This document shows positions 1 through 10,525 of a DNA stretch of 10,525 bases, one piece after another. The notes beneath the pieces are model-generated. The model saw nothing but the letters and a program-made list of their open reading frames with translations, was not told the DNA's origin and did not search any database. Each line of letters begins with the position of its first letter. The stretch's first letter is position 1. The stretch lies in UHGV virus genome UHGV-1717814, one strand, 5' to 3'. A program made the position numbers and the translations under genes. The DNA comes from a virus.

Positions 1-45
1 GTTCCACCCTACCTGATATCGAGCCAAACCAGTGCTCTCAGCGTT

Positions 46-122
46 GTGGCATTAGCTCAGTTGGACAGAGCAACCGCCTTCTAAGCGGTTGGTCGCAGGT
101 TCGAATCCTGCATGCCACGCCA
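46..122 (+). tRNA. tRNA-Arg, anticodon UCU (reads AGA)
   Basis: 77 nt. Acceptor stem GTGGCAT (46-52) pairs with ATGCCAC (112-118), discriminator G119, CCA 120-122. D-stem GCTC/GAGC, anticodon stem ACCGC/GCGGT with 7-nt loop CTTCTAA (anticodon TCT at 80-82), T-arm GCAGG-TTCGAAT-CCTGC. Fold worked out by hand, not with a tRNA scanner. Confidence 0.85.
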
Positions 123-165
123 GAATCACGCCTAAGGACCGTGATGCCAGAAGTTCCAGGGGATT

Positions 166-207
166 GGCGGTGATGGTTTCCCTTGAAGGACTATCACCGC
201 CCTTTTT
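166..207 (+). terminator. Putative rho-independent terminator downstream of the tRNA
   Basis: GGCGGTGAT (166-174) pairs with ATCACCGCC (193-201), followed by CTTTTT (202-207). The 18-nt loop is long, so confidence is moderate. Confidence 0.45.
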
Positions 208-325
208 ACAGCAGGACGCCATTGCGATGACTTCATGCTGTAAACCAGTACAGCCACGGAAGGCATAACTCATTGCTTCCAGTTCGCCAGGTTCGCCGGG
301 CATTTTTTTTAGGTGAGAATAGACT

Positions 326-697
326 ATGAGTGACAAAGACATTGAATCTGAAATTCAGGCTAAAGGTTTAGCCGCGCCGCGCGTTACGCCAGACCATATC
401 GAGAGCATTATTGCTCAGGAGGCATATTTCACAGCAGAAGATGGTGTCTTTGGCGTAGCCATAAAAGCGAAACATACTGGCGGAGAGGTAAACTACCAGC
501 CGCACGAATCACTTTCTCTGCTGACATTCTGCGTTCTGGTGCTGCGCAACGGCTTCACCGTCACCGGAGAGAGCGCCTGTGCAAGCCCGGAAAACTTTGA
601 TGCGGAAATTGGTCGGAAGATTGCCCGGCAGAATGCTGTAAACAAAATCTGGATGCTTGAAGGTTACTTGCTGAAGCAGAAGTTAAGCGAGCAATAA
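326..697 (+). CDS. Small phage-associated protein, 123 aa; tentatively N4 gp49 / Sf6 gp66-like family
   Basis: ATG at 326 with GGTGAG 9 nt upstream; TAA at 695-697; followed by a terminator. Family assignment is from memory and not verified. Confidence 0.6.
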   Translation: MSDKDIESEIQAKGLAAPRVTPDHIESIIAQEAYFTAEDGVFGVAIKAKHTGGEVNYQPHESLSLLTFCVLVLRNGFTVTGESACASPENFDAEIGRKIARQNAVNKIWMLEGYLLKQKLSEQ

Positions 698-700
698 CCC

Positions 701-714
701 CGTGACATGTCACA
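701..714. repeat. 14-mer CGTGACATGTCACA, copy 1 (core is the 12-bp perfect palindrome GTGACATGTCAC)
   Basis: Read directly; an identical 14-mer is at 2966-2979. Confidence 0.8.
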
Positions 715-717
715 AAC

Positions 718-746
718 AGCCAGCCGATGAGCTGGCTTTGTTTTAT
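718..746 (+). terminator. Rho-independent terminator between the convergent 326-697 gene and terL
   Basis: AGCCAGC (718-724), loop cgatga, GCTGGCT (731-737), then TTGTTTTAT. Sits in the convergent intergenic gap; the T-run on the opposite strand is weak. Confidence 0.5.
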
Positions 747-787
747 CCTCACCAGAGGATATCAGCAGCATTATCCCCTCCAGAGGA

Positions 788-2263
788 TTAAGCATAGGGA
801 TAGTAATCTGTAATGGCCTTGCCTTGCTGGTTCTGCTGACCGGGAATTCGCAGACGCTTCGACACCGGGAAAGCAAACGTCAGCAGTAGCGCATCGCCTT
901 TACCCGGCGAACGCCCAAGCCGCTCCTTGATATCTTCCTTCGGTTCGATAACGATTTTACCGTCCACGCGAACTTTGTACTCTGCCGCCGACAGGTCGTC
1001 CGCTGTTTCCTGGTCATCCAGCATGCCGCCCAGCCTCAGCCATGTCTTGCATGCATTGAACATCTCCCCACGCTTGTTAAGCATCTGCGGGTCAGTGGAC
1101 GCACCGCCGAACGGAACAAGTTGCCATGTACGTCCCCAGCCATCACCGATTGACTTCAAACCGGTTCCGTAACCGAAGTCGATGAACACCGCGTCAGCCT
1201 GGTACTGGTCTTCAAAGTCAGCGATACGCTTCGCCATAATCAGATCGTCGGTGGTCTTGTTGCCAGTCCATAGCACCTTACTATGCAACCCCTGCCGCAG
1301 GTATATCACCGCGTCATCAACGCCTGAATATGCCGGGTCAACACCGATTATCACCGGTGCATGTGCCACCTGCGCAGCAGTTACCACCCGTTTCATTGCC
1401 TCGTCAGTAAGACCGGTAGGGATAAACTGCAATTCAGATGCATTAGGGAATATGCCGCGTACACGGATTTTAACGAAGTCGCTGTCTTCCCCGTAGTCAT
1501 CAACCCATTTCTGCAATTGCTGCTTGTTAGTACCTTCCACCGTCCGGCTGTCAATCTGCGCAGTTTTCCAGCGGTGTTTATATTTGCGGAAACATTCACG
1601 GAATCGCCCGGTATTACGCGTCGGGTTTCCGAACGCCACCCAGATAATCTCAGTGTCTTCGTCCGTTAGCGCACCTTCGGCAACTTCCCACACCAGATCC
1701 GCAATGTTCGACGCTTCATCGAATACCACGATAATACGTTTGCGCTCGTTGTGTAGTCCGGCGAATGCCTCAGTGTTGTGCTCAGACCAGGGAATTGCGT
1801 CAGCTCGCCACCGCTTGTCGTGCCCAGGATCATTGCTGTACATCGCGGTAGCGGTACAGGTAAACCAGTCTTTCGTGATAGCAAGGTTGGACCACTTGAT
1901 AATTTCCGGCCAGGTCTTCGTTCGTAGCTGGTTGTCGGTGTTGGCGGTCACCACGACCTTACAATCCTCGCAAGTGGACATGCCCCAGTTGATCAGCATT
2001 GAGATGAATGCGGATTTACCAATACCGTGACCAGAAGCACGTGCCAGCATAAGCGGCTGATAGCGCGTCTCTGGATTCTGCAGATGATCACGTATCTCTC
2101 GGAACGCATCGGCCTGCCACTGACGTGGACCGGTGGCATGTGCCAGTTCAGTACCCTCTTCCCCCCACGGGAACGCATAGAGGGCATAGCCAAGCGGATC
2201 GTGAGTGAACCCTGCAATATCCTCGATCAACTGCTCTTCAGGAGATAACGCTGTATCTGTCAC
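788..2263 (-). CDS. terL: Terminase large subunit (ATPase/nuclease), 491 aa
   Basis: Walker A-like SGHGIGKS near the N-terminus and acidic motifs (VVFDEAS, IIGVDPA) typical of terminase ATPase/nuclease domains. GTG start at 2261-2263 overlaps the terS stop (GTGA coupling). Confidence 0.85.
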   Translation of the reverse strand: MTDTALSPEEQLIEDIAGFTHDPLGYALYAFPWGEEGTELAHATGPRQWQADAFREIRDHLQNPETRYQPLMLARASGHGIGKSAFISMLINWGMSTCEDCKVVVTANTDNQLRTKTWPEIIKWSNLAITKDWFTCTATAMYSNDPGHDKRWRADAIPWSEHNTEAFAGLHNERKRIIVVFDEASNIADLVWEVAEGALTDEDTEIIWVAFGNPTRNTGRFRECFRKYKHRWKTAQIDSRTVEGTNKQQLQKWVDDYGEDSDFVKIRVRGIFPNASELQFIPTGLTDEAMKRVVTAAQVAHAPVIIGVDPAYSGVDDAVIYLRQGLHSKVLWTGNKTTDDLIMAKRIADFEDQYQADAVFIDFGYGTGLKSIGDGWGRTWQLVPFGGASTDPQMLNKRGEMFNACKTWLRLGGMLDDQETADDLSAAEYKVRVDGKIVIEPKEDIKERLGRSPGKGDALLLTFAFPVSKRLRIPGQQNQQGKAITDYYPYA

Positions 2264-2856
2264 TGATTACCATCCTGACGTTCTTTGAGTCGCTTCCTGG
2301 CTGCTGCTATGCGATCAGCAATTGTCACATTCACATTAACATCCAGACGTTCTTTGAACGCGTTGACATCAACATGCTTACCAATCAGTTCTAGGTTCTT
2401 CACCTTGTCAGGCCATTTAATTTTTTTGAGGATTGTCTCTATCGAATCCTCGTTCATGTTCATGATGGTCGATGACAGATCAAAGCCACTAAGCGTAGTG
2501 CGCCAGATTTTCGGCCACTCACGGATTGGTTTAAGGCTCCCATCGTCGTTGAGGATATCGATCACGTCCATCTGGTCGATCTCCACCAAGCGCATGAGAA
2601 CGTAATCAGCACTGACGCGCATTCGTTTGTTGCGCTCCTCCATCAACTCGGCAATCCGTTTTTGAATGCGTTCATCGCGCATCATGACACTGGCTTTAAC
2701 TGCCGCTGTATTTGGGGAGAATCCTGCGTTAATCGCTGCCTGAGTCTGGTTTTCAGGCGTTTTGATGTATGACTGGCAATAAGCCTCCTGCATTGCTGTG
2801 AGCGGCTTAAATTGCGTTGATTTGCGTTTATAGGTTTTAGGTTCAGCAGGCATCAT
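2260..2856 (-). CDS. terS: Terminase small subunit, about 198 aa
   Basis: LTAMQEAYCQSYI...AAINAGFSPNTAAVKAS...RIQKRIAELMEER matches the pattern I recall for phage terminase small subunits. The ORF-track start at 2934 is a TTG extension overlapping a terminator hairpin; I place the start at the tandem ATGs 2854-2856 / 2851-2853, preceded by GGTGG. Confidence 0.8.
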   Translation of the reverse strand: MMPAEPKTYKRKSTQFKPLTAMQEAYCQSYIKTPENQTQAAINAGFSPNTAAVKASVMMRDERIQKRIAELMEERNKRMRVSADYVLMRLVEIDQMDVIDILNDDGSLKPIREWPKIWRTTLSGFDLSSTIMNMNEDSIETILKKIKWPDKVKNLELIGKHVDVNAFKERLDVNVNVTIADRIAAARKRLKERQDGNQ

Positions 2857-2865
2857 AACCACCGT

Positions 2866-2895
2866 GGTAATAGTTACCGTTGTGGTAATAGTACC
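2866..2895. promoter_or_regulatory. Palindrome cluster directly upstream of terS: perfect TTACC-gttgt-GGTAA (2874-2888) flanked by extra GGTAA / TACC half-sites
   Basis: Read directly; same motif as at the immunity region. Lies between the terminator (2899-2925) and the terS start codon. Confidence 0.45.
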
Positions 2896-2898
2896 ATG

Positions 2899-2925
2899 CA
2901 AAATAAAGCCGCCATAGTTGGCGGC
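2899..2925 (-). terminator. Rho-independent terminator upstream of terS (minus-strand sense)
   Basis: GCCGCCA (2908-2914) pairs with TGGCGGC (2919-2925), loop TAGT. On the minus strand the hairpin is followed by TTTATTT (complement of 2901-2907). Confidence 0.55.
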
Positions 2926-2965
2926 AGTATTCAAAACCCGTCAAATTCATCATGCATAATCTACT

Positions 2966-2979
2966 CGTGACATGTCACA
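2966..2979. repeat. 14-mer CGTGACATGTCACA, copy 2
   Basis: Identical to 701-714. Overlaps the stop codon of the 2975-3322 ORF and lies about 40 nt upstream (in transcription sense) of the terS-proximal terminator. Confidence 0.8.
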
Positions 2980-3322
2980 CTATTAATTTCGTTTCATGCC
3001 AGCCTTTAGTCACCCAGCATTGCGAGTCACCATTACACGGGCATGAATTAACTGGAACTCTCTCGCCGCACTTACCGCAACGTTTTCTGCTGATCGATTT
3101 TATACGCCCGCGCACACGTGCATCATCCTGGCGGATCAGCAGCGCGATGTACTCGGCCATTTCATAGGGATCGCGACCAGGGCGCCGGGCGGCGCAGTTC
3201 CGCGCCAGCATTTCCTGCTCCTGCTTATCCAGCACCAGTTCAATTTTGCGCTCACCGGCGGCGGACTGCCGAGCGCGCTGCGCGGCTTTGCGTTCTGCGG
3301 GGGATTTAGCCACGAATCGCAC
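2975..3322 (-). CDS. Hypothetical basic protein (about 112-115 aa) with C-terminal Cys cluster CGKCG...CPCNGDSQC; possible DNA-binding regulator
   Basis: Long ORF on the operon strand. Start is uncertain: GTG at 3320-3322 or GTG at 3311-3313, which has GGAG 8 nt upstream. Function is inferred only from composition and position. Confidence 0.4.
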   Translation of the reverse strand: MRFVAKSPAERKAAQRARQSAAGERKIELVLDKQEQEMLARNCAARRPGRDPYEMAEYIALLIRQDDARVRGRIKSISRKRCGKCGERVPVNSCPCNGDSQCWVTKGWHETKLIV

Positions 3323-3428
3323 TCCACGCCAGATTGATTAATGACTCCCAGGTAATATAAACCCGGATACCAGCAGCCAGGCCGAAACCAATCACCATGG
3401 CATAAAGCAGAGCGTTGCACTTGTTCAT
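3306..3428 (-). CDS. 40-aa hydrophobic peptide (MNKCNALLYAMVIGFGLAAGIRVYITWESLINLAWSAIRG), putative small membrane protein
   Basis: Below the ORF-track size cut-off. ATG overlaps the stop of the upstream gene (TGATG) and GGAGGTGA lies upstream. Overlaps the start region of the 2975-3322 ORF, so one of the two models is probably wrong. Confidence 0.35.
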   Translation of the reverse strand: MNKCNALLYAMVIGFGLAAGIRVYITWESLINLAWSAIRG

Positions 3429-4195
3429 CACTTCACCTCCTGCGGCGGTTCTGGTAGCGGCATCCAGTGGGTTACATTGCGGCTCTGCGTTTCGAAGAAC
3501 TCCTCACCATTGCGGACGACATCAAAAAATTCACCGTCTCGATATTGCGCATAAAGAACGAATGCGCTATCACATAAAATAATTACGTGCTGACCATCAT
3601 CAGGCATTCGCTCACTACAGCTTATCCAACCATCCGGAGTAACCGGATAGTTGCCATTCACAAGGTCAGCTCGAACATATAGCGTGTCATCATGGTGCTG
3701 ATTGTGGCTGCACCACGTTAATTCGCTTAACTCGCCATCTTCTGGCCATACTCCAGCCGTTTGCAGCCAGATATGGGCTGGCGCATCTTGGCAAGGTGTA
3801 TTAACTGGCAACTTGTAAGTTTGGCTTACAGGTTCGGCACCATGAAGCATGGCGGCGCGGCAGGCATTCCAGCCTGTAGCGTATGCAGCCGCTTTGCTGC
3901 TGCCTTCAACTGGCGCATCCTGCCAATACATTTCTTCCGGCACTACCTGCACCTGAGGGGTGGCGTAGAGTGGAATTCCTCCCCCTCCACCAGAAAATTC
4001 ATTGCGAGCGTTATACTCACGACCATCTGCGTCATCACGCATCCACGCCACCGGTTCTGCTTCCAGCGATGCCAGCGCGATACGAAACACATTGGCAAGC
4101 AGGCTGTCTGAAGATTGGTTATCGTGCGCCGGGTCGCTCAGGAAGCCTGTGATGAATGATTTAATCTCCGCACGTTCTTTGGTAATAGTGGTCAT
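3428..4195 (-). CDS. DUF551-like phage protein, 255 aa
   Basis: C-terminal segment WISCSERMPDDGQHVIIL...HWMPLPEPP resembles the DUF551 signature as I recall it; N-terminal part is joined by a GGGGG linker. AAGGAG 8 nt upstream of the ATG at 4193-4195. Confidence 0.7.
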   Translation of the reverse strand: MTTITKERAEIKSFITGFLSDPAHDNQSSDSLLANVFRIALASLEAEPVAWMRDDADGREYNARNEFSGGGGGIPLYATPQVQVVPEEMYWQDAPVEGSSKAAAYATGWNACRAAMLHGAEPVSQTYKLPVNTPCQDAPAHIWLQTAGVWPEDGELSELTWCSHNQHHDDTLYVRADLVNGNYPVTPDGWISCSERMPDDGQHVIILCDSAFVLYAQYRDGEFFDVVRNGEEFFETQSRNVTHWMPLPEPPQEVK

Positions 4196-4205
4196 GTGTT
4201 ACTCC

Positions 4206-4469
4206 TTAACCCGCAGTGCTTTCAACTGATGAGGGGAATAAAATCTTTTCATCAAATCCGGCATTCATATCATGGACAGCAACACACCAATCCATCGACG
4301 AACGATTATCAAGAGCCTCCATGATTTCATCCATGCGGCGCAGGTCATACAGGTAAATGCTTTTATCGCCAATGGTGTAAAAACCAATTTTTTTCGGTGA
4401 TGGGCAGCGATCAAGAACGTCCTGTAATTCGTTCAACCATGCCTGTTCTTTTTTTGTCAAAGTTGCCAT
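4206..4469 (-). CDS. Hypothetical protein, 87 aa (possibly extended to the GTG at 4544)
   Basis: ATG at 4467-4469 with TAAGGAAAA upstream; stop overlaps the DUF551-like gene's SD. The upstream extension encodes FAKSPARRK, similar to the N-terminus of the 2975-3322 ORF, so the longer form cannot be excluded. Confidence 0.55.
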   Translation of the reverse strand: MATLTKKEQAWLNELQDVLDRCPSPKKIGFYTIGDKSIYLYDLRRMDEIMEALDNRSSMDWCVAVHDMNAGFDEKILFPSSVESTAG

Positions 4470-4470
4470 A

Positions 4471-4662
4471 TCAGTTTTCCTTATTAATGCGACAGTGGTT
4501 TTTCCAGCGGTTTTGCGCCGCGCTGGGCTTTTTGCAAAAACCACAATCCATCATCCCGTAATATTTCATCAACCCCATCCGTCGGTTGCTGAGTCTCACC
4601 CACTGCCAGACGCCAGGAGCGTTTCTACGAACTAACAGAATCTTTGCTTTACGGTTTTTCAT
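4471..4662 (-). CDS. Micro-ORF, 63 aa, basic (MKNRKAK...)
   Basis: ATG at 4660-4662 overlaps the stop of the upstream micro-ORF (ATGA); its own stop is 1 nt from the next ATG. No family recognised. Confidence 0.3.
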   Translation of the reverse strand: MKNRKAKILLVRRNAPGVWQWVRLSNRRMGLMKYYGMMDCGFCKKPSAAQNRWKNHCRINKEN

Positions 4663-4835
4663 CTTACAGCGTACCCTTTCTTCCGCCTGTTCTGTGACGC
4701 AGTAGGCTTACGCTTTGCGGCAAAAGCCACCTGACCAAATGGATGGAGTACCGCTATCTTATGGTTGCTAATAACCAGCTCCACCACACGCACAGGTCGC
4801 TGTAAAAAAAGTCGTTTTGCCTTACGGTTTTTCAT
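4659..4835 (-). CDS. Micro-ORF, 58 aa, basic (MKNRKAKRLF...)
   Basis: ATGA coupling at both ends; shares a near-identical 23-nt start region with the 4471-4662 ORF. Confidence 0.25.
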   Translation of the reverse strand: MKNRKAKRLFLQRPVRVVELVISNHKIAVLHPFGQVAFAAKRKPTASQNRRKKGYAVR

Positions 4836-5008
4836 CGCTTTGCTCTCCTGCGTCTCTTTGCTGCTCGTCGTGCCGCTGCAATACCGGTATGGCGGCGCTT
4901 TGGTGCCGGGATGATGTTGTCAGCCATCAGGACATACGGCTTTGCAATTAGCGCAGAAGCCCAAAAACGAGTCGGGTACGGTAACAAGCCGATACATGCC
5001 ACACGCAT
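4832..5008 (-). CDS. Micro-ORF, 58 aa, very basic C-terminus (MRVACIGLL...RRAAKRRRRAKR)
   Basis: ATG overlaps the TAA of the Ea22-like gene (TAATG) with AGGAGG 6 nt upstream; stop overlaps the next ATG. Confidence 0.35.
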   Translation of the reverse strand: MRVACIGLLPYPTRFWASALIAKPYVLMADNIIPAPKRRHTGIAAARRAAKRRRRAKR

Positions 5009-5769
5009 TACTCACCTCCTTTGATGCGAATGCCTGCAGCGCGGATTGCAGCGATGACTTCAGAAACTTTGTATGCCATTACCGTTTGGTAATCATCGTG
5101 AAAATCTGTTCGATGAAGCATGCTGCTACGTTCCGGGAGCGATATTTCCCGAGCATCCAGTTCCTTAACGCGTTCCTCCAGTTCGTAGACCCTGCATTGT
5201 TCTCTATCATCAATCAGATATAACCCAAGACATTCGCTTTCTACCCAACCGCCAAAATCATGATCGTAACGCTCACATGAAAACTCACCGTCACCGTCCT
5301 TTGTTGGAATGGTGTAACTATCTAATGGGCCACCATATGTCGGCACATTTCCCAATGTTGGATGCTCAATCCACATGAAAAATGCACGTCCGGTTATTGG
5401 GCAAATATCTGGCCGCCATTGGTTACGAACAGCCTTGGTTTCGGATAATTCTTCAGCGTGTTGTTTTACTTCCTCAAGCTCAACTCTCAGCTTCCCTACC
5501 GTTAGCGCAATATCCTCGTTCTCCTGATCGCGGCGTTTTATGTATTGCTGGTTTCTTTCCCGTTCATCCAGAAGCGCCAAGACGGTAGCCGGATTGGCTG
5601 CGGCGATGAATTCAGCATCACGAGATTCGTTTTCACTGAACACCATAGCTATTTGCTCATGGTTTATGCCGTCAGTGGAGTAAATCTCATCGTCGAATTC
5701 AACAGCCCACTTACCTTTCGTAGCCTTCTCTGCCGCCTCACGCAGTGCCTGATAGTCAATCTTGCTCAC
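5008..5769 (-). CDS. Ead/Ea22-like protein, 253 aa
   Basis: N-terminus MSKIDYQALREAAEKATKGKW matches the recalled Ea22-like signature of lambdoid prophages. GTG start at 5767-5769 with AAGGAGG 6 nt upstream. Confidence 0.7.
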   Translation of the reverse strand: MSKIDYQALREAAEKATKGKWAVEFDDEIYSTDGINHEQIAMVFSENESRDAEFIAAANPATVLALLDERERNQQYIKRRDQENEDIALTVGKLRVELEEVKQHAEELSETKAVRNQWRPDICPITGRAFFMWIEHPTLGNVPTYGGPLDSYTIPTKDGDGEFSCERYDHDFGGWVESECLGLYLIDDREQCRVYELEERVKELDAREISLPERSSMLHRTDFHDDYQTVMAYKVSEVIAAIRAAGIRIKGGE

Positions 5770-6070
5770 TGGCAGCCTCCTTTGCCGGGATTTCTAACTT
5801 TTGAGTGGTTGTATCAAATTCAAACAACTTAACCACGTCATCAAACAGGACATAATCACCATCAGGATCTTCAGTCATATCTGCGCCACAATCCTGACCG
5901 CACGAGTCGCAACCATCCATATCAAGCTCGTATCGCTTCAGGTTTGCGATATTTGATAAATTCAGCGCCAGTACAGCCAGGTCATAAACCTCTTCGGCAG
6001 TGACATCGCTGTTCAGTCCCATTTCATGGCGATATATGATTTTTTCTACACGTTGTTTTGTGATCGTCAT
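5756..6070 (-). CDS. Hypothetical strongly acidic protein, 104 aa (24 D/E against 9 K/R by my count; Cys cluster DGCDSCGQDCGAD)
   Basis: ATG at 6068-6070 overlaps the upstream stop (ATGA). Composition counted by hand. Confidence 0.6.
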   Translation of the reverse strand: MTITKQRVEKIIYRHEMGLNSDVTAEEVYDLAVLALNLSNIANLKRYELDMDGCDSCGQDCGADMTEDPDGDYVLFDDVVKLFEFDTTTQKLEIPAKEAASEQD

Positions 6071-6630
6071 TTTTGCTCACCTTCCTGTTCTTCCAGAAAA
6101 ATACGCATAGCCTCAAGCATCTCTTCGGTGTCATACGGAGACAGCTTGTCACGCAGGATGTGTTCAATGCTGTTAATGAACTTGCGGATTGCTTTGCGTT
6201 CAATTTCAGCCAGGAAAGCGTCGGTGGCTGGGGTGTCTGATTGCAGAGACTTTGCGCGATAGTCATTCCACCCTCTTGCATACATGGGATTAACTTGCAC
6301 TCCATCTTTTACGCAATATGCCTGCCCTCCACGGTTGATAACCTTGATTTCGTCCATAGCGCCAGACTTCAGCCCCGCATTCTCCGCCGCCAGTGCCGAA
6401 AACTTCTCGTGTGCCAACTTAACAGCCGAATCAGCCTGCTTAATTGACTCAATCGCTTTCTGCTGGTCTTCGGCCAGCGCATTAGCACGCACCAGTTGCA
6501 CTTCCAGTTGCGTTGCCAAATCGCTGATCAGCTTTGCCACACTGCGCATATCAACGGCACCACATTCTGCTTTCAGTTCCGAAGCCATCTCATGCCCGGC
6601 GGCAACTAACCCTTTGATATTACTTTCCAT
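6067..6630 (-). CDS. Hypothetical protein with alanine-rich, probably coiled-coil N-terminal half, 187 aa
   Basis: ATG at 6628-6630 with GAGGGTAAAG upstream; no family recognised. Confidence 0.6.
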   Translation of the reverse strand: MESNIKGLVAAGHEMASELKAECGAVDMRSVAKLISDLATQLEVQLVRANALAEDQQKAIESIKQADSAVKLAHEKFSALAAENAGLKSGAMDEIKVINRGGQAYCVKDGVQVNPMYARGWNDYRAKSLQSDTPATDAFLAEIERKAIRKFINSIEHILRDKLSPYDTEEMLEAMRIFLEEQEGEQK

Positions 6631-6691
6631 CTTTACCCTCGCTTATCCACATAACTTATTGATTACATTGATAACTAAAAAGATCGTCGAT

Positions 6692-7036
6692 TCAGAAATC
6701 TTCGATGTTCCAGCCACCACCTGCTTTCTTTGGTTTAACCGTTACCCCGATGATTCGGAACGGATACTGATCTGCGGCGACTTTGGTTTTCACCCTGGCG
6801 TCGTCGGTCCAGAAACCTTTCACTTCGTGCAGTTCCATCTCGCCGGTGGCGAGCATCACAGCGAAATCTGGCGTATAGAACGTGTTATTAGCTAACCGCA
6901 GCTTGATACCCTCGAATCGATACCAGGCGATTTCCCCTGCACGTTTACGCTGCTCAAGGTGCTGGCAATACGCAGATTCTGTTTTGTTCATCTGGCCTGT
7001 TTTGAGTCGACCAAGAGCCTGCATCTGTTTTCTCAT
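6692..7036 (-). CDS. Small PD-(D/E)xK-like nuclease-fold protein, 114 aa (DUF1064-like)
   Basis: Segment YTPDFAVMLATGEMELHEVKG contains a PD...(E)xK arrangement. ATG at 7034-7036 with GAGGT 5 nt upstream. Family assignment from memory. Confidence 0.6.
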   Translation of the reverse strand: MRKQMQALGRLKTGQMNKTESAYCQHLEQRKRAGEIAWYRFEGIKLRLANNTFYTPDFAVMLATGEMELHEVKGFWTDDARVKTKVAADQYPFRIIGVTVKPKKAGGGWNIEDF

Positions 7037-7039
7037 GAT

Positions 7040-7116
7040 TTACCTCTGAGGTAATTAAAAACCACATAAGACACGAAATCAATAGGGTTTAGAATATTTT
7101 ATTACCTGATGGGTAA
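7040..7116 (-). promoter_or_regulatory. Operator-flanked promoter driving the accessory operon (minus strand)
   Basis: Perfect TTACC-N5-GGTAA at 7040-7054 and 7102-7116. Between them, on the minus strand: -35 TTGATT (7077-7082), 17-nt spacer, -10 TTTAAT (7054-7059). Same geometry as the PL-like region, including a 19-nt gap between the upstream operator and the -35. Confidence 0.5.
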
Positions 7117-7153
7117 TTATTTGAGCGTAAAAAAATGCGCTATCGCGCTGGTA

Positions 7154-7939
7154 TTACTTGATAAATCCTGCCGCCTTTCCCCGCCTGTATTCCTCCATCA
7201 GCCACTGCGCCGGTGTTATTCCCCCAAGGGTGGCGGCGTTAGGCATGCACCCGAAACTTCGCCCAGGTGGATGGTAAACGTCTCTCCCTGTGTCCGGAGG
7301 TGTACTCATGGGCTCTGGCTTTGCCTGTATGCTGATCACCGGATCGGGTATCTGCTGTCCGGAAGCCACCTTTTTCGCCCAATCATCGAGCAGCCTGCGC
7401 GCGTGTTTCTCAACCTCAATCTCGCTAAGCTGGCGCTGATACATTGCACGGCGGGTATCACATACGACCCAGTACATAACCGGATGTCGCCACGGGAATC
7501 TTTCGGGACCACCAGGATATAAACTTTTTTCCTTGCTGTACCGGTGAAACTCCGCCATCACATCGTCAATGGTGACGCCAAGAACCATCTTGCTGTCTTT
7601 ACACCACTTGATGAATTGCCCTGGCGACGGCCAGAACGGAGACTCACTGGCGCGGGCGTGGCGCATACCAGCAGAAACCTGTTCACGGGTTCGGATCCCC
7701 CCTTCGGCAAACGCAGCAATCCACTGCTGTTTTGCAGCAACTTCCTGCTCTGGCGTCTTCAGGTTGGTTACCACTGCCGCCGGAAACAGTTGTTTCAGCT
7801 GCTTGAAAAGGGCATCAACAAGCCTCTCTGCTGACATGTTCACTACGTTGTCATTGTTGGTGTACTGATGCTCATAACCTGACATGCGAGAAAGGGCTTC
7901 TCCGTCACGGTTTTGTATCGCGGTAAAAACGTTGTTCAC
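7154..7939 (-). CDS. Replication protein P-like (DnaB helicase loader), about 261 aa
   Basis: Segment LFKQLKQLFPAA...QQWIAAFAEGGIRTREQVSAGMRHARASESPFWPSPGQFIKWCKD aligns by eye with lambda P as I recall it (...RRQWVLAFRENGITTMEQVNAGMRVARRQNRPFLPSPGQFVAWCRE). ORF track begins at the GTG at 7954; I prefer the GTG at 7937-7939, which overlaps the O-like stop (GTGA) with GGAGGA 5 nt upstream. Confidence 0.85.
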   Translation of the reverse strand: MNNVFTAIQNRDGEALSRMSGYEHQYTNNDNVVNMSAERLVDALFKQLKQLFPAAVVTNLKTPEQEVAAKQQWIAAFAEGGIRTREQVSAGMRHARASESPFWPSPGQFIKWCKDSKMVLGVTIDDVMAEFHRYSKEKSLYPGGPERFPWRHPVMYWVVCDTRRAMYQRQLSEIEVEKHARRLLDDWAKKVASGQQIPDPVISIQAKPEPMSTPPDTGRDVYHPPGRSFGCMPNAATLGGITPAQWLMEEYRRGKAAGFIK

Positions 7940-8751
7940 AAGAAATCCTCCCACGCTTCAGGGCTGTTCCAGTGCGGAACGTTGTTATCAGGTAATGTTG
8001 ATTGCTTCTGTCTGCTAATCTGCAGCCGCCTTGCCAGCTTCTGCTCCCACTGTGCCTGATGGTATGCCTTACCCTCAGCCATCCAGTAAATTCTGAACTC
8101 TGCAAGTTCCTGTGCCGTTGGCAGACTGTCCAGGTAGATCCCCTGCAATGAGCTTTTCCGAAGAAAGTCATCTGATGGCTGCCATTGTTCATGCATGACA
8201 AATTTGCCTAATTGCCCTGGCCCACCAGGAGGAACAAAGTTATTCATCACGGCGTTGTTTGCGCCTGGGTCATGATGCACAGAATCCCCGTTTTTTGTCC
8301 TGCTCTCCCTCTCTTGGTTAAATGACTGGTTATATGACTGGTTCTGGATCCCGTTTTTGGGATCATTCAACATCCCGTTTTTGGGATCATTCAACATCCC
8401 GTTTTTGGGTATATTCCCGTTTTCGGTAACATTACCGTTTTCGGGTTCATTGCCCCCCTCTCGGTTGCCTTTAATGTTCCCGTTTTTGGTTATATTAAGA
8501 GAGAAAACCCGCACTCTTTTTGTCGCTCCCTTTCTCTCCCCGGTATCTGAAATAAGCCCCATTTTCATGAGCGATATAAGTCCGGCCTGCACGGTTTTTT
8601 TATTCAGGCAAGTGTCTTTAACGAGGCGTTCTATGCTGGGGTAGCAGAGGTTATATTCATCGGCTCTGTCAGCCATCGAGAGCAGTATGAGCTTTAATGA
8701 CGAGCTACCTGGATCTGTCTCCCAGGCCCAATCTGTTGCATGTCTGCTCAT
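7936..8751 (-). CDS. Replication initiator, O-like, 271 aa, with an internal low-complexity N/G/K-rich region encoded by the origin iterons
   Basis: Sits immediately upstream of, and coupled to, the P-like gene. Contains the iteron array at 8284-8497. ATG at 8749-8751 with GGAG 9 nt upstream. Confidence 0.75.
   Translation of the reverse strand: MSRHATDWAWETDPGSSSLKLILLSMADRADEYNLCYPSIERLVKDTCLNKKTVQAGLISLMKMGLISDTGERKGATKRVRVFSLNITKNGNIKGNREGGNEPENGNVTENGNIPKNGMLNDPKNGMLNDPKNGIQNQSYNQSFNQERESRTKNGDSVHHDPGANNAVMNNFVPPGGPGQLGKFVMHEQWQPSDDFLRKSSLQGIYLDSLPTAQELAEFRIYWMAEGKAYHQAQWEQKLARRLQISRQKQSTLPDNNVPHWNSPEAWEDFL
8284..8497. repeat. Iteron array, putative replication origin inside the O-like gene
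   Basis: Two perfect 24-bp direct repeats ATCCCGTTTTTGGGATCATTCAAC (8348-8371, 8372-8395) plus at least four degenerate copies sharing CCCGTTTT(T)GG (around 8284, 8396, 8417, 8435, 8478). Confidence 0.7.
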
Positions 8752-8766
8752 GATTAATCTCCGCTA

Positions 8767-8967
8767 TCAGCTTGAATGTTGTGGGGAGGAATTAATCATG
8801 ATCTGCTTAATCTCTGCCCTGATACGACGGTTTGATTCCATGGTGCACTCAACACAGTGTCCGTTGTAAACCCAGCGTTCACTGTCATGTCCGTGCTTAC
8901 ATGTTTTTCCGGTGTAGTAGCGTTTAAGTCCGCGCTTTGCGGCATCAATACGTGTAATGATTTCCAT
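8767..8967 (-). CDS. Small zinc-ribbon-like protein, 66 aa, in the position lambda uses for cII
   Basis: Internal ATG at 8965-8967 (MEIITRIDAAKRGLKRYYTGKTCKHGHDSERWVYNGHCVECT...); C-x-H-G-H...C-x2-C spacing. The longer track ORF from 9036 has a hydrophobic, unlikely extension. The ribosome-binding site is weak. Confidence 0.45.
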   Translation of the reverse strand: MEIITRIDAAKRGLKRYYTGKTCKHGHDSERWVYNGHCVECTMESNRRIRAEIKQIMINSSPQHSS

Positions 8968-9047
8968 GGTAAGCCCTGTTATTAGTATTGGGATTACGGT
9001 TATTTTGTGCTGACACAAAAAAAAGATCAACCACATTTGGTTTTTTA

Positions 9048-9062
9048 TTACCTTTGAGGTAC
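9048..9062. promoter_or_regulatory. Near-perfect operator-like palindrome TTACC-tttga-GGTAC
   Basis: One mismatch in the right half-site; lies just downstream of the cro-proximal terminator. Confidence 0.3.
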
Positions 9063-9073
9063 GAATAGATATG

Positions 9074-9095
9074 AAAAGACCGCCGGATGGCGGTC
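9074..9095 (-). terminator. tR1-like rho-independent terminator just after the Cro-like gene
   Basis: GACCGCC (9078-9084), loop ggat, GGCGGTC (9089-9095); on the minus strand it is followed by TTTT (complement of 9074-9077). Confidence 0.5.
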
Positions 9096-9117
9096 TACAG
9101 AGGGTTGTGGCTGGATA

Positions 9118-9348
9118 TCATGAGTAGAAGAAGTATGCCAGTTCTGCTTTTGAGCACAGCCATTGTCTTGATTTACAGGCTTTAAAAAGCCCATCCATCA
9201 ATACCTTACCTGGCATTTTGCGCTTACCTGTTAAGTGAGTCTGGATATAGTGACTCGTCGTTCCGGCTTCCTGTGCGAAGGCTTCACGCTCATCCGGAGT
9301 AAGTGCAAGCCAGTGCTTTTTGAAATCGAAATGTCCGTTATCGCTCAT
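9118..9348 (-). CDS. Cro-like HTH regulator, 76 aa (YdaS-like)
   Basis: Divergent from the repressor gene across an operator-rich gap. Segment FAQEAGTTSHYIQTHLTGKRKMP resembles the YdaS/Cro-type HTH as I recall it. Confidence 0.65.
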   Translation of the reverse strand: MSDNGHFDFKKHWLALTPDEREAFAQEAGTTSHYIQTHLTGKRKMPGKVLMDGLFKACKSRQWLCSKAELAYFFYS

Positions 9349-9384
9349 AGCTATTGCCTGATATTTATTTCAGATAATAAATAT

Positions 9385-9447
9385 TCACCTATAAGGTAAC
9401 AAAAATCAAGGATAGTTACCCATGAGGTGCATTTACCTGTTGGGTAA
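9385..9447. promoter_or_regulatory. Tripartite OR-like operator region with divergent promoters
   Basis: TCACC-tataa-GGTAA (9385-9399), TTACC-catga-GGTGC (9416-9430), perfect TTACC-tgttg-GGTAA (9433-9447). Candidate minus-strand promoter for the Cro-like gene: TTGATT, 17 nt, GAATAT, overlapping the first two sites. Confidence 0.6.
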
Positions 9448-9502
9448 TATTGCTTTAAATTGAATCATCTTCTGATTCAGATATGAGGCGATTTTCCAGA
9501 AA

Positions 9503-10087
9503 ATGAAAAGTATCCAGGACGTCCGCAGGCAAAATCTCAACGACTTGATCGACCGTGAATTCAATGGTGTTCAGACGCGGATGGCTGAAAAACTTGGAAC
9601 TCAGGCAAATCTGGTAAACCGCTGGGCTCTTGGCAAGAAGGTTATCGGCGACCAGGTTGCGCGAAAAATTGAAGCTGCCGCCAATAAACCCCGTAACTGG
9701 CTTGATATCGATCGCTCGCTTTCTCAGGAAGGTTTTCAGCCTGTCGGCCCGAGTGATATAGGTCAGCTGGCTGCTCACAACCTGGAACGCTGGATGAGCG
9801 AAAGCCGCGACCTTTCAACGCAGGGAAAACTACACCGCGCATCCGGCGTCGCCCAGGTGACAATCAGCCGCCTGTTAAACAATGAGGTCAGCGTTTCCAT
9901 TTCCACCCTGGAGAATGTTGCATCCGCATTCGGGCGTCATGGCTATGAATTACTGATTCACCCGCACGACCCTGCGACTATCAACTATGACCGCTCGCGC
10001 TACGCATTGTTACCCGAAACCGAGAAAGCAAAGATCGAAAGTTACATTGAATTTGTCATCAACCAGAACGAAAAAAACAAACAATAA
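9503..10087 (+). CDS. Immunity repressor candidate, 194 aa, with two XRE-type HTH segments and no recognisable S24 autocleavage domain
   Basis: HTH-like segments QTRMAEKLGTQANLVNRWALGKK and GKLHRASGVAQVTISRLLNNEVSVSISTLENVASAF. Divergent from the Cro-like gene and followed by a terminator. Absence of the peptidase domain judged by eye and by the short length. Confidence 0.7.
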   Translation: MKSIQDVRRQNLNDLIDREFNGVQTRMAEKLGTQANLVNRWALGKKVIGDQVARKIEAAANKPRNWLDIDRSLSQEGFQPVGPSDIGQLAAHNLERWMSESRDLSTQGKLHRASGVAQVTISRLLNNEVSVSISTLENVASAFGRHGYELLIHPHDPATINYDRSRYALLPETEKAKIESYIEFVINQNEKNKQ

Positions 10088-10107
10088 AACCATATTTTTC
10101 AGTAAGT

Positions 10108-10133
10108 AAGCCGCCTTATGGCGGCTTTTTTAT
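10108..10133 (+). terminator. Rho-independent terminator after the repressor gene
   Basis: AAGCCGCC (10108-10115), loop TTAT, GGCGGCTT (10120-10127), then T-run to 10133. Confidence 0.6.
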
Positions 10134-10144
10134 TGCCTATTCGA

Positions 10145-10221
10145 TTACCTAACGGGTAATTTTTTTAACTCATATCTATTGACATCAAACCATATACGCA
10201 TAATTATTACCTCAACGGTAA
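10145..10221 (+). promoter_or_regulatory. PL-like promoter flanked by two operators
   Basis: Perfect TTACC-taacg-GGTAA (10145-10159) and TTACC-tcaac-GGTAA (10207-10221). Between them: -35 TTGACA (10179-10184), 17-nt spacer, -10 AATTAT (10202-10207). Confidence 0.55.
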
Positions 10222-10240
10222 CAGACCGAGGTAACAAGTT

Positions 10241-10393
10241 ATGCAGTGGAAAATCATCAACGGTTGGTACTGCGTTACTGCATGCGGATTCATGAGCTGG
10301 AAGTTCCGCACCTTACAGGAAGGCATTAAGTGGGCTTTCGTCAGCAAAGAAGCTCGCGATGTGGCCAACGATAACGAGATATGGGAGGGCTGA
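10241..10393 (+). CDS. Small early-left ORF, 50 aa (MQWKIINGWYCVTACGFMSWKF...)
   Basis: Below ORF-track cut-off. ATG at 10241 with GAGGT 9 nt upstream, immediately downstream of the PL-like promoter. Confidence 0.45.
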   Translation: MQWKIINGWYCVTACGFMSWKFRTLQEGIKWAFVSKEARDVANDNEIWEG

Positions 10394-10395
10394 TA

Positions 10396-10494
10396 ATGAA
10401 CGTTAATCAGCAGAAAAATCTTCAAAAAATCATGCTGGCATTCGACAAGGACTACCGTCTGTCAGAACAGCTATATGACCGACAAGTTGAACTG
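10396..10494 (+). CDS. 5' part of an early-left ORF (MNVNQQKNLQKIMLAFDKDYRLSEQLYDRQVEL...), truncated by the adapter
   Basis: ATG at 10396 with GGGAGGG 8 nt upstream. The reading frame continues into adapter sequence, so the true downstream sequence is unknown. Confidence 0.35.
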
Positions 10495-10525
10495 CTGTCT
10501 CTTATACACATCTCCGAGCCCACGA
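10495..10525. other. Illumina Nextera / Tn5 mosaic-end adapter sequence (technical artefact)
   Basis: CTGTCTCTTATACACATCTCCGAGCCCACGA is an exact 31-nt match to the Nextera read-through adapter (19-bp mosaic end plus CCGAGCCCACGA), recalled from memory. Confidence 0.9.

Follow-up and report, generated by a model that had tools for sequence, protein, structure and literature searches.

The last 31 nucleotides of the window, by which we mean the whole stretch of 10,525 nucleotides that was analysed, are a sequencing-library artefact without biological information. With a probability of roughly 97%, positions 10495–10525 represent Illumina Nextera adapter sequence that escaped trimming and now forms the tip of an assembled contig. 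The window ends in ...CGACAAGTTGAACTG, followed by CTGTCTCTTATACACATCT and then CCGAGCCCACGA; the nine nucleotides directly 5' of the junction are GTTGAACTG, and the junction itself reads ...GTTGAACTG-CTGTCTCTTATACACATCTCCGAGCCCACGA. In a script comparison, the tail is an exact prefix (31/31) of the 34-nucleotide sequence CTGTCTCTTATACACATCTCCGAGCCCACGAGAC. This sequence is composed of the 19-nucleotide Tn5 mosaic end (ME) and, in reverse complement, the Nextera Tn5ME-B extension; the script also confirmed that reverse-complementing the Tn5ME-B oligo GTCTCGTGGGCTCGGAGATGTGTATAAGAGACAG yields exactly this sequence.

Composition and uniqueness of the tail

The tail falls into two parts, both read on the plus strand. 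Positions 10495–10513 hold the ME, CTGTCTCTTATACACATCT, as an exact match with 0 mismatches. Read in reverse complement, the Tn5ME-B 5' extension GTCTCGTGGGCTCGG has 15 nucleotides; positions 10514–10525 hold the first 12 of these, CCGAGCCCACGA, which belong to the side of a Nextera library that carries i7 and P7. All of the nucleotides available 3' of the ME (12/12) therefore agree with the reverse complement of that extension, CCGAGCCCACGAGAC, and the window stops three nucleotides (GAC) short of the complete 34-nucleotide adapter. The original prediction had described these last 31 nucleotides as an exact Nextera read-through adapter made up of the 19-bp mosaic end and an adapter extension, and it was right on the match, the order of the parts and the coordinates.

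Both components are found in print. Picelli et al. 2014 (PMC4248319) give Tn5ME-B (Illumina FC-121-1031) as GTCTCGTGGGCTCGGAGATGTGTATAAGAGACAG, and list CTGTCTCTTATACACATCT as the oligo Tn5MErev. The 34-mer turns up in 120 papers, and published cutadapt trimming commands use '-a' CTGTCTCTTATACACATCTCCGAGCCCACGAGAC for read 1 together with '-A CTGTCTCTTATACACATCTGACGCTGCCGACGA' as the string for read 2. Compared with this Nextera read-1 3' read-through adapter, all 31 nucleotides of the tail are identical and the orientation is the same, running from insert to ME to i7 side. Compared with the complete adapter, only 31 of 34 nucleotides are present, without index or P7, and the sequence ends there.

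Within the window the ME is unique on both strands, even when up to three mismatches are tolerated, and no other 12-mers of Nextera, TruSeq, P5 or P7 occur elsewhere in the window, the left end included. A chance resemblance to the adapter within genuine phage sequence has a probability that is practically nil: from the base composition of the window, about 8e-15 copies of the 31-mer are expected on both strands together, the ME did not appear in any of 200 dinucleotide-preserving shuffles of the window (0/200), and homologous genomes read differently from 10495 on.

The 19-nucleotide ME also ends commercial in-vitro transposons, and Tn5 occurs naturally in enterobacteria. The tail could on these grounds be read as a real ME-flanked transposon insertion (laboratory mutagenesis of the EZ-Tn5 type) or as a native Tn5/IS50 end, but this is highly improbable. 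The 12 nucleotides past the ME are those of the Nextera Tn5ME-B extension and not transposon-internal sequence or cargo; with respect to IS50, the flanking 12 nucleotides are synthetic adapter. The native Tn5 outside end (OE, CTGACTCTTATACACAAGT) and inside end (IE, CTGTCTCTTGATCAGATCT) differ from the ME at three and four positions, respectively. These native Tn5/IS50 ends are the 19-bp transposase-binding ends from which the ME descends, and the ME itself is a hyperactive replacement for the wild-type ends that was derived in vitro (PMC4248319). In addition, the 31-mer has no match in 5,426 complete E. coli genomes, amounting to 28 Gb of sequence. It would be just as surprising if the DNA of the strain or phage truly carried the ME together with Nextera-B, for example after an adapter-loaded transposome had been electroporated into cells for in-vivo mutagenesis. 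If this were true, the junction at 10494 would be a real insertion that disrupts an early gene of 99 amino acids.

Break with the native prophage sequence at 10494

An untrimmed adapter on a contig end also agrees with what is seen in related genomes. Positions 1–10494 are DNA of a phiV10-like (epsilon15-like) temperate podovirus prophage of E. coli, and they are 100.0% identical, as a single colinear piece, to the complete E. coli chromosomes NZ_CP173554.1 and NZ_CP070152.1. The match stops at 10494. When a junction query of 626 nucleotides (window 9900–10525) was searched, 16 phage and 509 E. coli records covered at least 80% of it, and the 15 best of the 16 phage matches as well as the 15 best of the 509 E. 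coli matches all end at position 595 of the query, corresponding to 10494 in the window. As a control, the native 626-nucleotide equivalent (L001:1501–2126) was matched over its full length (1–626) at 99.5–100% identity in the matches listed, and the number of records was the same. Because the control is matched end to end, the other genomes are continuous across the junction, and it is only the window that departs. The native sequence past 10494 is ATTGAGAG..., and NZ_CP070152.1 runs on after ...GTTGAACTG as ATTGAGAGTATCCGG.... The native base that follows 10494 is A, while the window has C; since this C is the first base of the adapter, the junction cannot be shifted by microhomology. The 37-nucleotide string that spans the junction has no match in IMG/VR or JGI metagenome contigs. 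The uniform divergence of the listed relatives at 10494/10495, together with the lack of the 31-mer in the E. coli genomes, bears out the earlier view of the tail as a library artefact and not phage sequence.

The artefact has a direct effect on the interpretation of the open reading frame (ORF) that starts at 10396. Positions 10396–10494 (plus strand) are the native first 33 codons of a 99-amino-acid prophage ORF (WP_001102254.1, hypothetical protein), here truncated at the 3' side, as a comparison with the full-length protein in CP070152.1 shows. Positions 10495–10524 (plus strand) add ten adapter-encoded pseudo-codons, LSLIHISEPT, in the same frame, with the start of the adapter coinciding exactly with codon 34. 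The ORF translates as MNVNQQKNLQKIMLAFDKDYRLSEQLYDRQVEL followed by LSLIHISEPT, and it seems to run on because the adapter has no stop codon in that frame. The native protein reads ...RQVEL-IESIRLHQLASTFDVV... and ends in ...GQRDAA before its stop codon, with IESIRLHQLA in place of LSLIHISEPT. An exact look-up in the gene-position index found no gene with the 43-amino-acid chimeric product. The ORF at 10396 is thus a 3'-truncated copy of the 99-amino-acid gene and LSLIHISEPT is spurious, just as had been proposed when the apparent continuation of the ORF was put down to the adapter (the native protein having ...QVEL-IESIRLH... at this point).

According to the original prediction, no conclusion is possible about the DNA to the right of 10494. 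This holds for the window taken alone, but it does not hold by homology, since the identical chromosomes show a continuation. To the right of 10494, both of them have the rest of the 99-amino-acid ORF, followed by a PD-(D/E)XK nuclease-like gene, a recombinase of the RecT family and two regulators, one each of the AlpA and PerC families. In other relatives, too, the rest of the WP_001102254.1 ORF is followed by PD-(D/E)XK nuclease-like and RecT genes. By homology to the identical genomes, the native DNA past 10494 would be expected to continue in the same way.

The genuine part of the window has the following organisation. A tRNA-Arg(TCT) gene at 46–122 (plus strand) is followed by a gene of the Gp49 family, which lies between it and the terminase genes; next come the genes for the large and small terminase subunits (minus strand), then small early genes (DUF551, ead/Ea22-like, DUF1064), and after these the genes for replication protein P and a DnaT-like protein. 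Towards the right end are a 194-amino-acid HTH repressor-like gene (9503–10087) and an ORF of 50 amino acids (10241–10393). Phages phiv142-3, PAS61 and TL-2011b are 95–97% identical to the window over 53–70% of its length. The ORF of 491 amino acids at 788–2263 (minus strand) is annotated as 'hypothetical protein' in NZ_CP173554.1 and as terminase large subunit in phiv142-3, PAS61 and ZX5; it lies directly upstream of the gene for the small terminase subunit. The gene for the DnaT-like ssDNA-binding protein (window ~7936–8751, minus strand) is frameshifted according to the annotation of FDAARGOS_1285 (NZ_CP070152.1, L001 1–352), whereas CP173554.1 and the window both have it intact, in the window as an ORF of 271 amino acids. 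The match to NZ_CP070152.1 is one nucleotide shorter than the window.

The tRNA-Arg(TCT) gene sits between a portal/head module (on the left side in CP173554.1) and the terminase genes, and it is annotated also in the E. coli O157 typing phages 9 and 10, so that it appears to be a phage-borne tRNA rather than one that marks an attachment site. A match from position 1 is seen only in CP173554.1, CP070152.1 and phage EC.W1-9; in most relatives the match starts at 31, which points to a mosaic boundary immediately upstream of the tRNA. A search of the phage collection with the whole window also returned 64 Synechococcus phage records, and these matches are most likely due to the tRNA gene.

The same adapter in other public records

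The 31-mer is not limited to this window. Searched alone, it matches 37 records of the phage collection, mostly within about 100 nucleotides of the record end. The carriers include phages of Streptococcus, Bacillus, Listeria, Staphylococcus, Pseudomonas, Paenibacillus, Salmonella and Escherichia as well as unclassified 'Bacteriophage sp.' assemblies, which means at least eight host genera. Contaminated phage genomes such as LT985593.1, MK327937.1 and MH375598.1 show the same 31-mer on unrelated phage DNA, usually at record ends. In contrast to the window, several of these records retain the full index, P7 and poly-A, and some of the copies sit inside the record or overlap annotated CDSs. In LT985593.1 the 31-mer is followed by GAC-GGACTCCT-ATATCGTATGCCGTCTTCTGCTTG-AAAAAAA, and in MK327937.1 by GAC-CGTACTAG-ATCTCGTATGCCGTCTTCTGCTTG and then a long poly-A. 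The layout in these two records is that of a full library construct: adapter, 8-nucleotide i7 index, and P7 flow-cell sequence. The 8-mers GGACTCCT and CGTACTAG correspond to N705 and N702 of the Nextera index set.

A scan of IMG/VR returned at least 120 stretches with the 31-mer, and the matches listed contain 124 occurrences. All but one of these 124 listed occurrences lie no more than 50 nucleotides from the end of the stretch, in the order genome, adapter, end (123/124). GAC, or as much of it as is available, comes next in 122 of the 124, and two end right after the 31 nucleotides, as the window does. Where at least 20 nucleotides follow, the start of P7 is found at the expected offset in 34 of 37 listed occurrences. 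The 12-mers on the genomic side are distinct in 123 of the 124 listed occurrences. Unrelated DNA on one side, a terminal position, the same outward orientation and a continuation into index and P7 together mark the sequence as an adapter rather than a biological element.

Not all copies are terminal, and the adapter in the window might also be an internal chimeric join that bridges two unrelated pieces, with the window cut from a longer contig or scaffold. Public records with an internal adapter do exist, for example MK327937.1 at position 110018 of 170182, and in one IMG/VR locus (L016) the adapter lies 8351 nucleotides from the end of the stretch. However, the window ends inside the adapter, its odd length of 10525 suggests the end of a sequence, and 123 of the 124 listed IMG/VR occurrences are terminal, which makes a join of this kind unlikely. 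Even if it were one, the 31 nucleotides remain an artefact. The original prediction took 10494 to be a contig end, and this is consistent with a window that stops inside the adapter and with the terminal, outward-facing position of the same 123 listed IMG/VR occurrences.

It is worth noting some individual cases. Phage records deposited as 'complete genome' carry the adapter internally; the internal copy in MK327937.1 (110018–110048 of 170182) has the index CGTACTAG, P7 and about 60 nucleotides of poly-A, and is located between two genes. In MK327946.1/NC_054919.1 and in LR535910.1, the adapter lies under a CDS annotated as 'baseplate hub subunit and tail lysozyme', so that public protein records probably contain residues encoded by the adapter. 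At the end of the Streptococcus thermophilus phages MH375598.1 and MH375599.1, phage sequence is followed by this exact 31-mer in reverse complement, an orientation that is not simple read-through. Among the IMG/VR contigs, many of the contaminated ones come from a single dataset, 3300045988. Two contigs of this dataset, IMGVR_UViG_3300045988_001800 (5104 nucleotides) and IMGVR_UViG_3300045988_092106 (14075 nucleotides), carry an outward-facing adapter at either end, with one and the same index in both copies. The result in both is a near-terminal inverted repeat of about 45–65 nucleotides that is purely artefactual.

Proposed origin and practical consequences

The way in which the adapter came to be on the contig may be outlined as follows. 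In tagmentation, a Tn5 transposome loaded with mosaic-end oligos fragments the DNA and attaches adapters, and one fragment end carrying the Tn5ME-B adapter would have been located just past window position 10494. If at least one library molecule had an insert too short to fill the read, read 1 would have run off the insert into the adapter complement, that is CTGTCTCTTATACACATCT-CCGAGCCCACGAGAC-[i7 index]-ATCTCGTATGCCGTCTTCTGCTTG. With trimming skipped or incomplete, the assembler could then have lengthened the contig tip with adapter sequence before it stopped. We infer read-through of a short insert as the route, against the background of tagmentation libraries (PMC4248319). The extension of the tip by the assembler is likewise inferred, and it would probably have taken place at a point with little coverage of the true path.

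Two further ideas about the tail were followed and dropped. MH375598.1, where the remnant is exactly 31 nucleotides long, raised the idea that a remnant of this size is a hub vertex in a de Bruijn graph with k=31. This is unsupported, as only two of the 124 listed IMG/VR remnants are 31 nucleotides long. The remnants in the 124 listed occurrences range from 31 to 76 nucleotides, with peaks at 47–49 and 76, and the length of 31 nucleotides therefore carries no meaning. The weak target consensus of Tn5 is a poor fit to GTTGAACTG and is uninformative.

For users of this sequence, the practical value is that 10495–10525 should be trimmed or masked and that the ORF at 10396 should be treated as 3'-partial. 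No inferences about terminal repeats, att sites, packaging ends or genome ends are warranted from the right end. The contaminant is spread in public collections, with 37 GenBank/RefSeq phage records (in some of them under annotated CDSs) and at least 120 IMG/VR stretches, and adapters at both ends of a contig mimic inverted terminal repeats (ITRs) and could pass for an ITR or a signal of completeness. The significance of the finding is one of data hygiene only.
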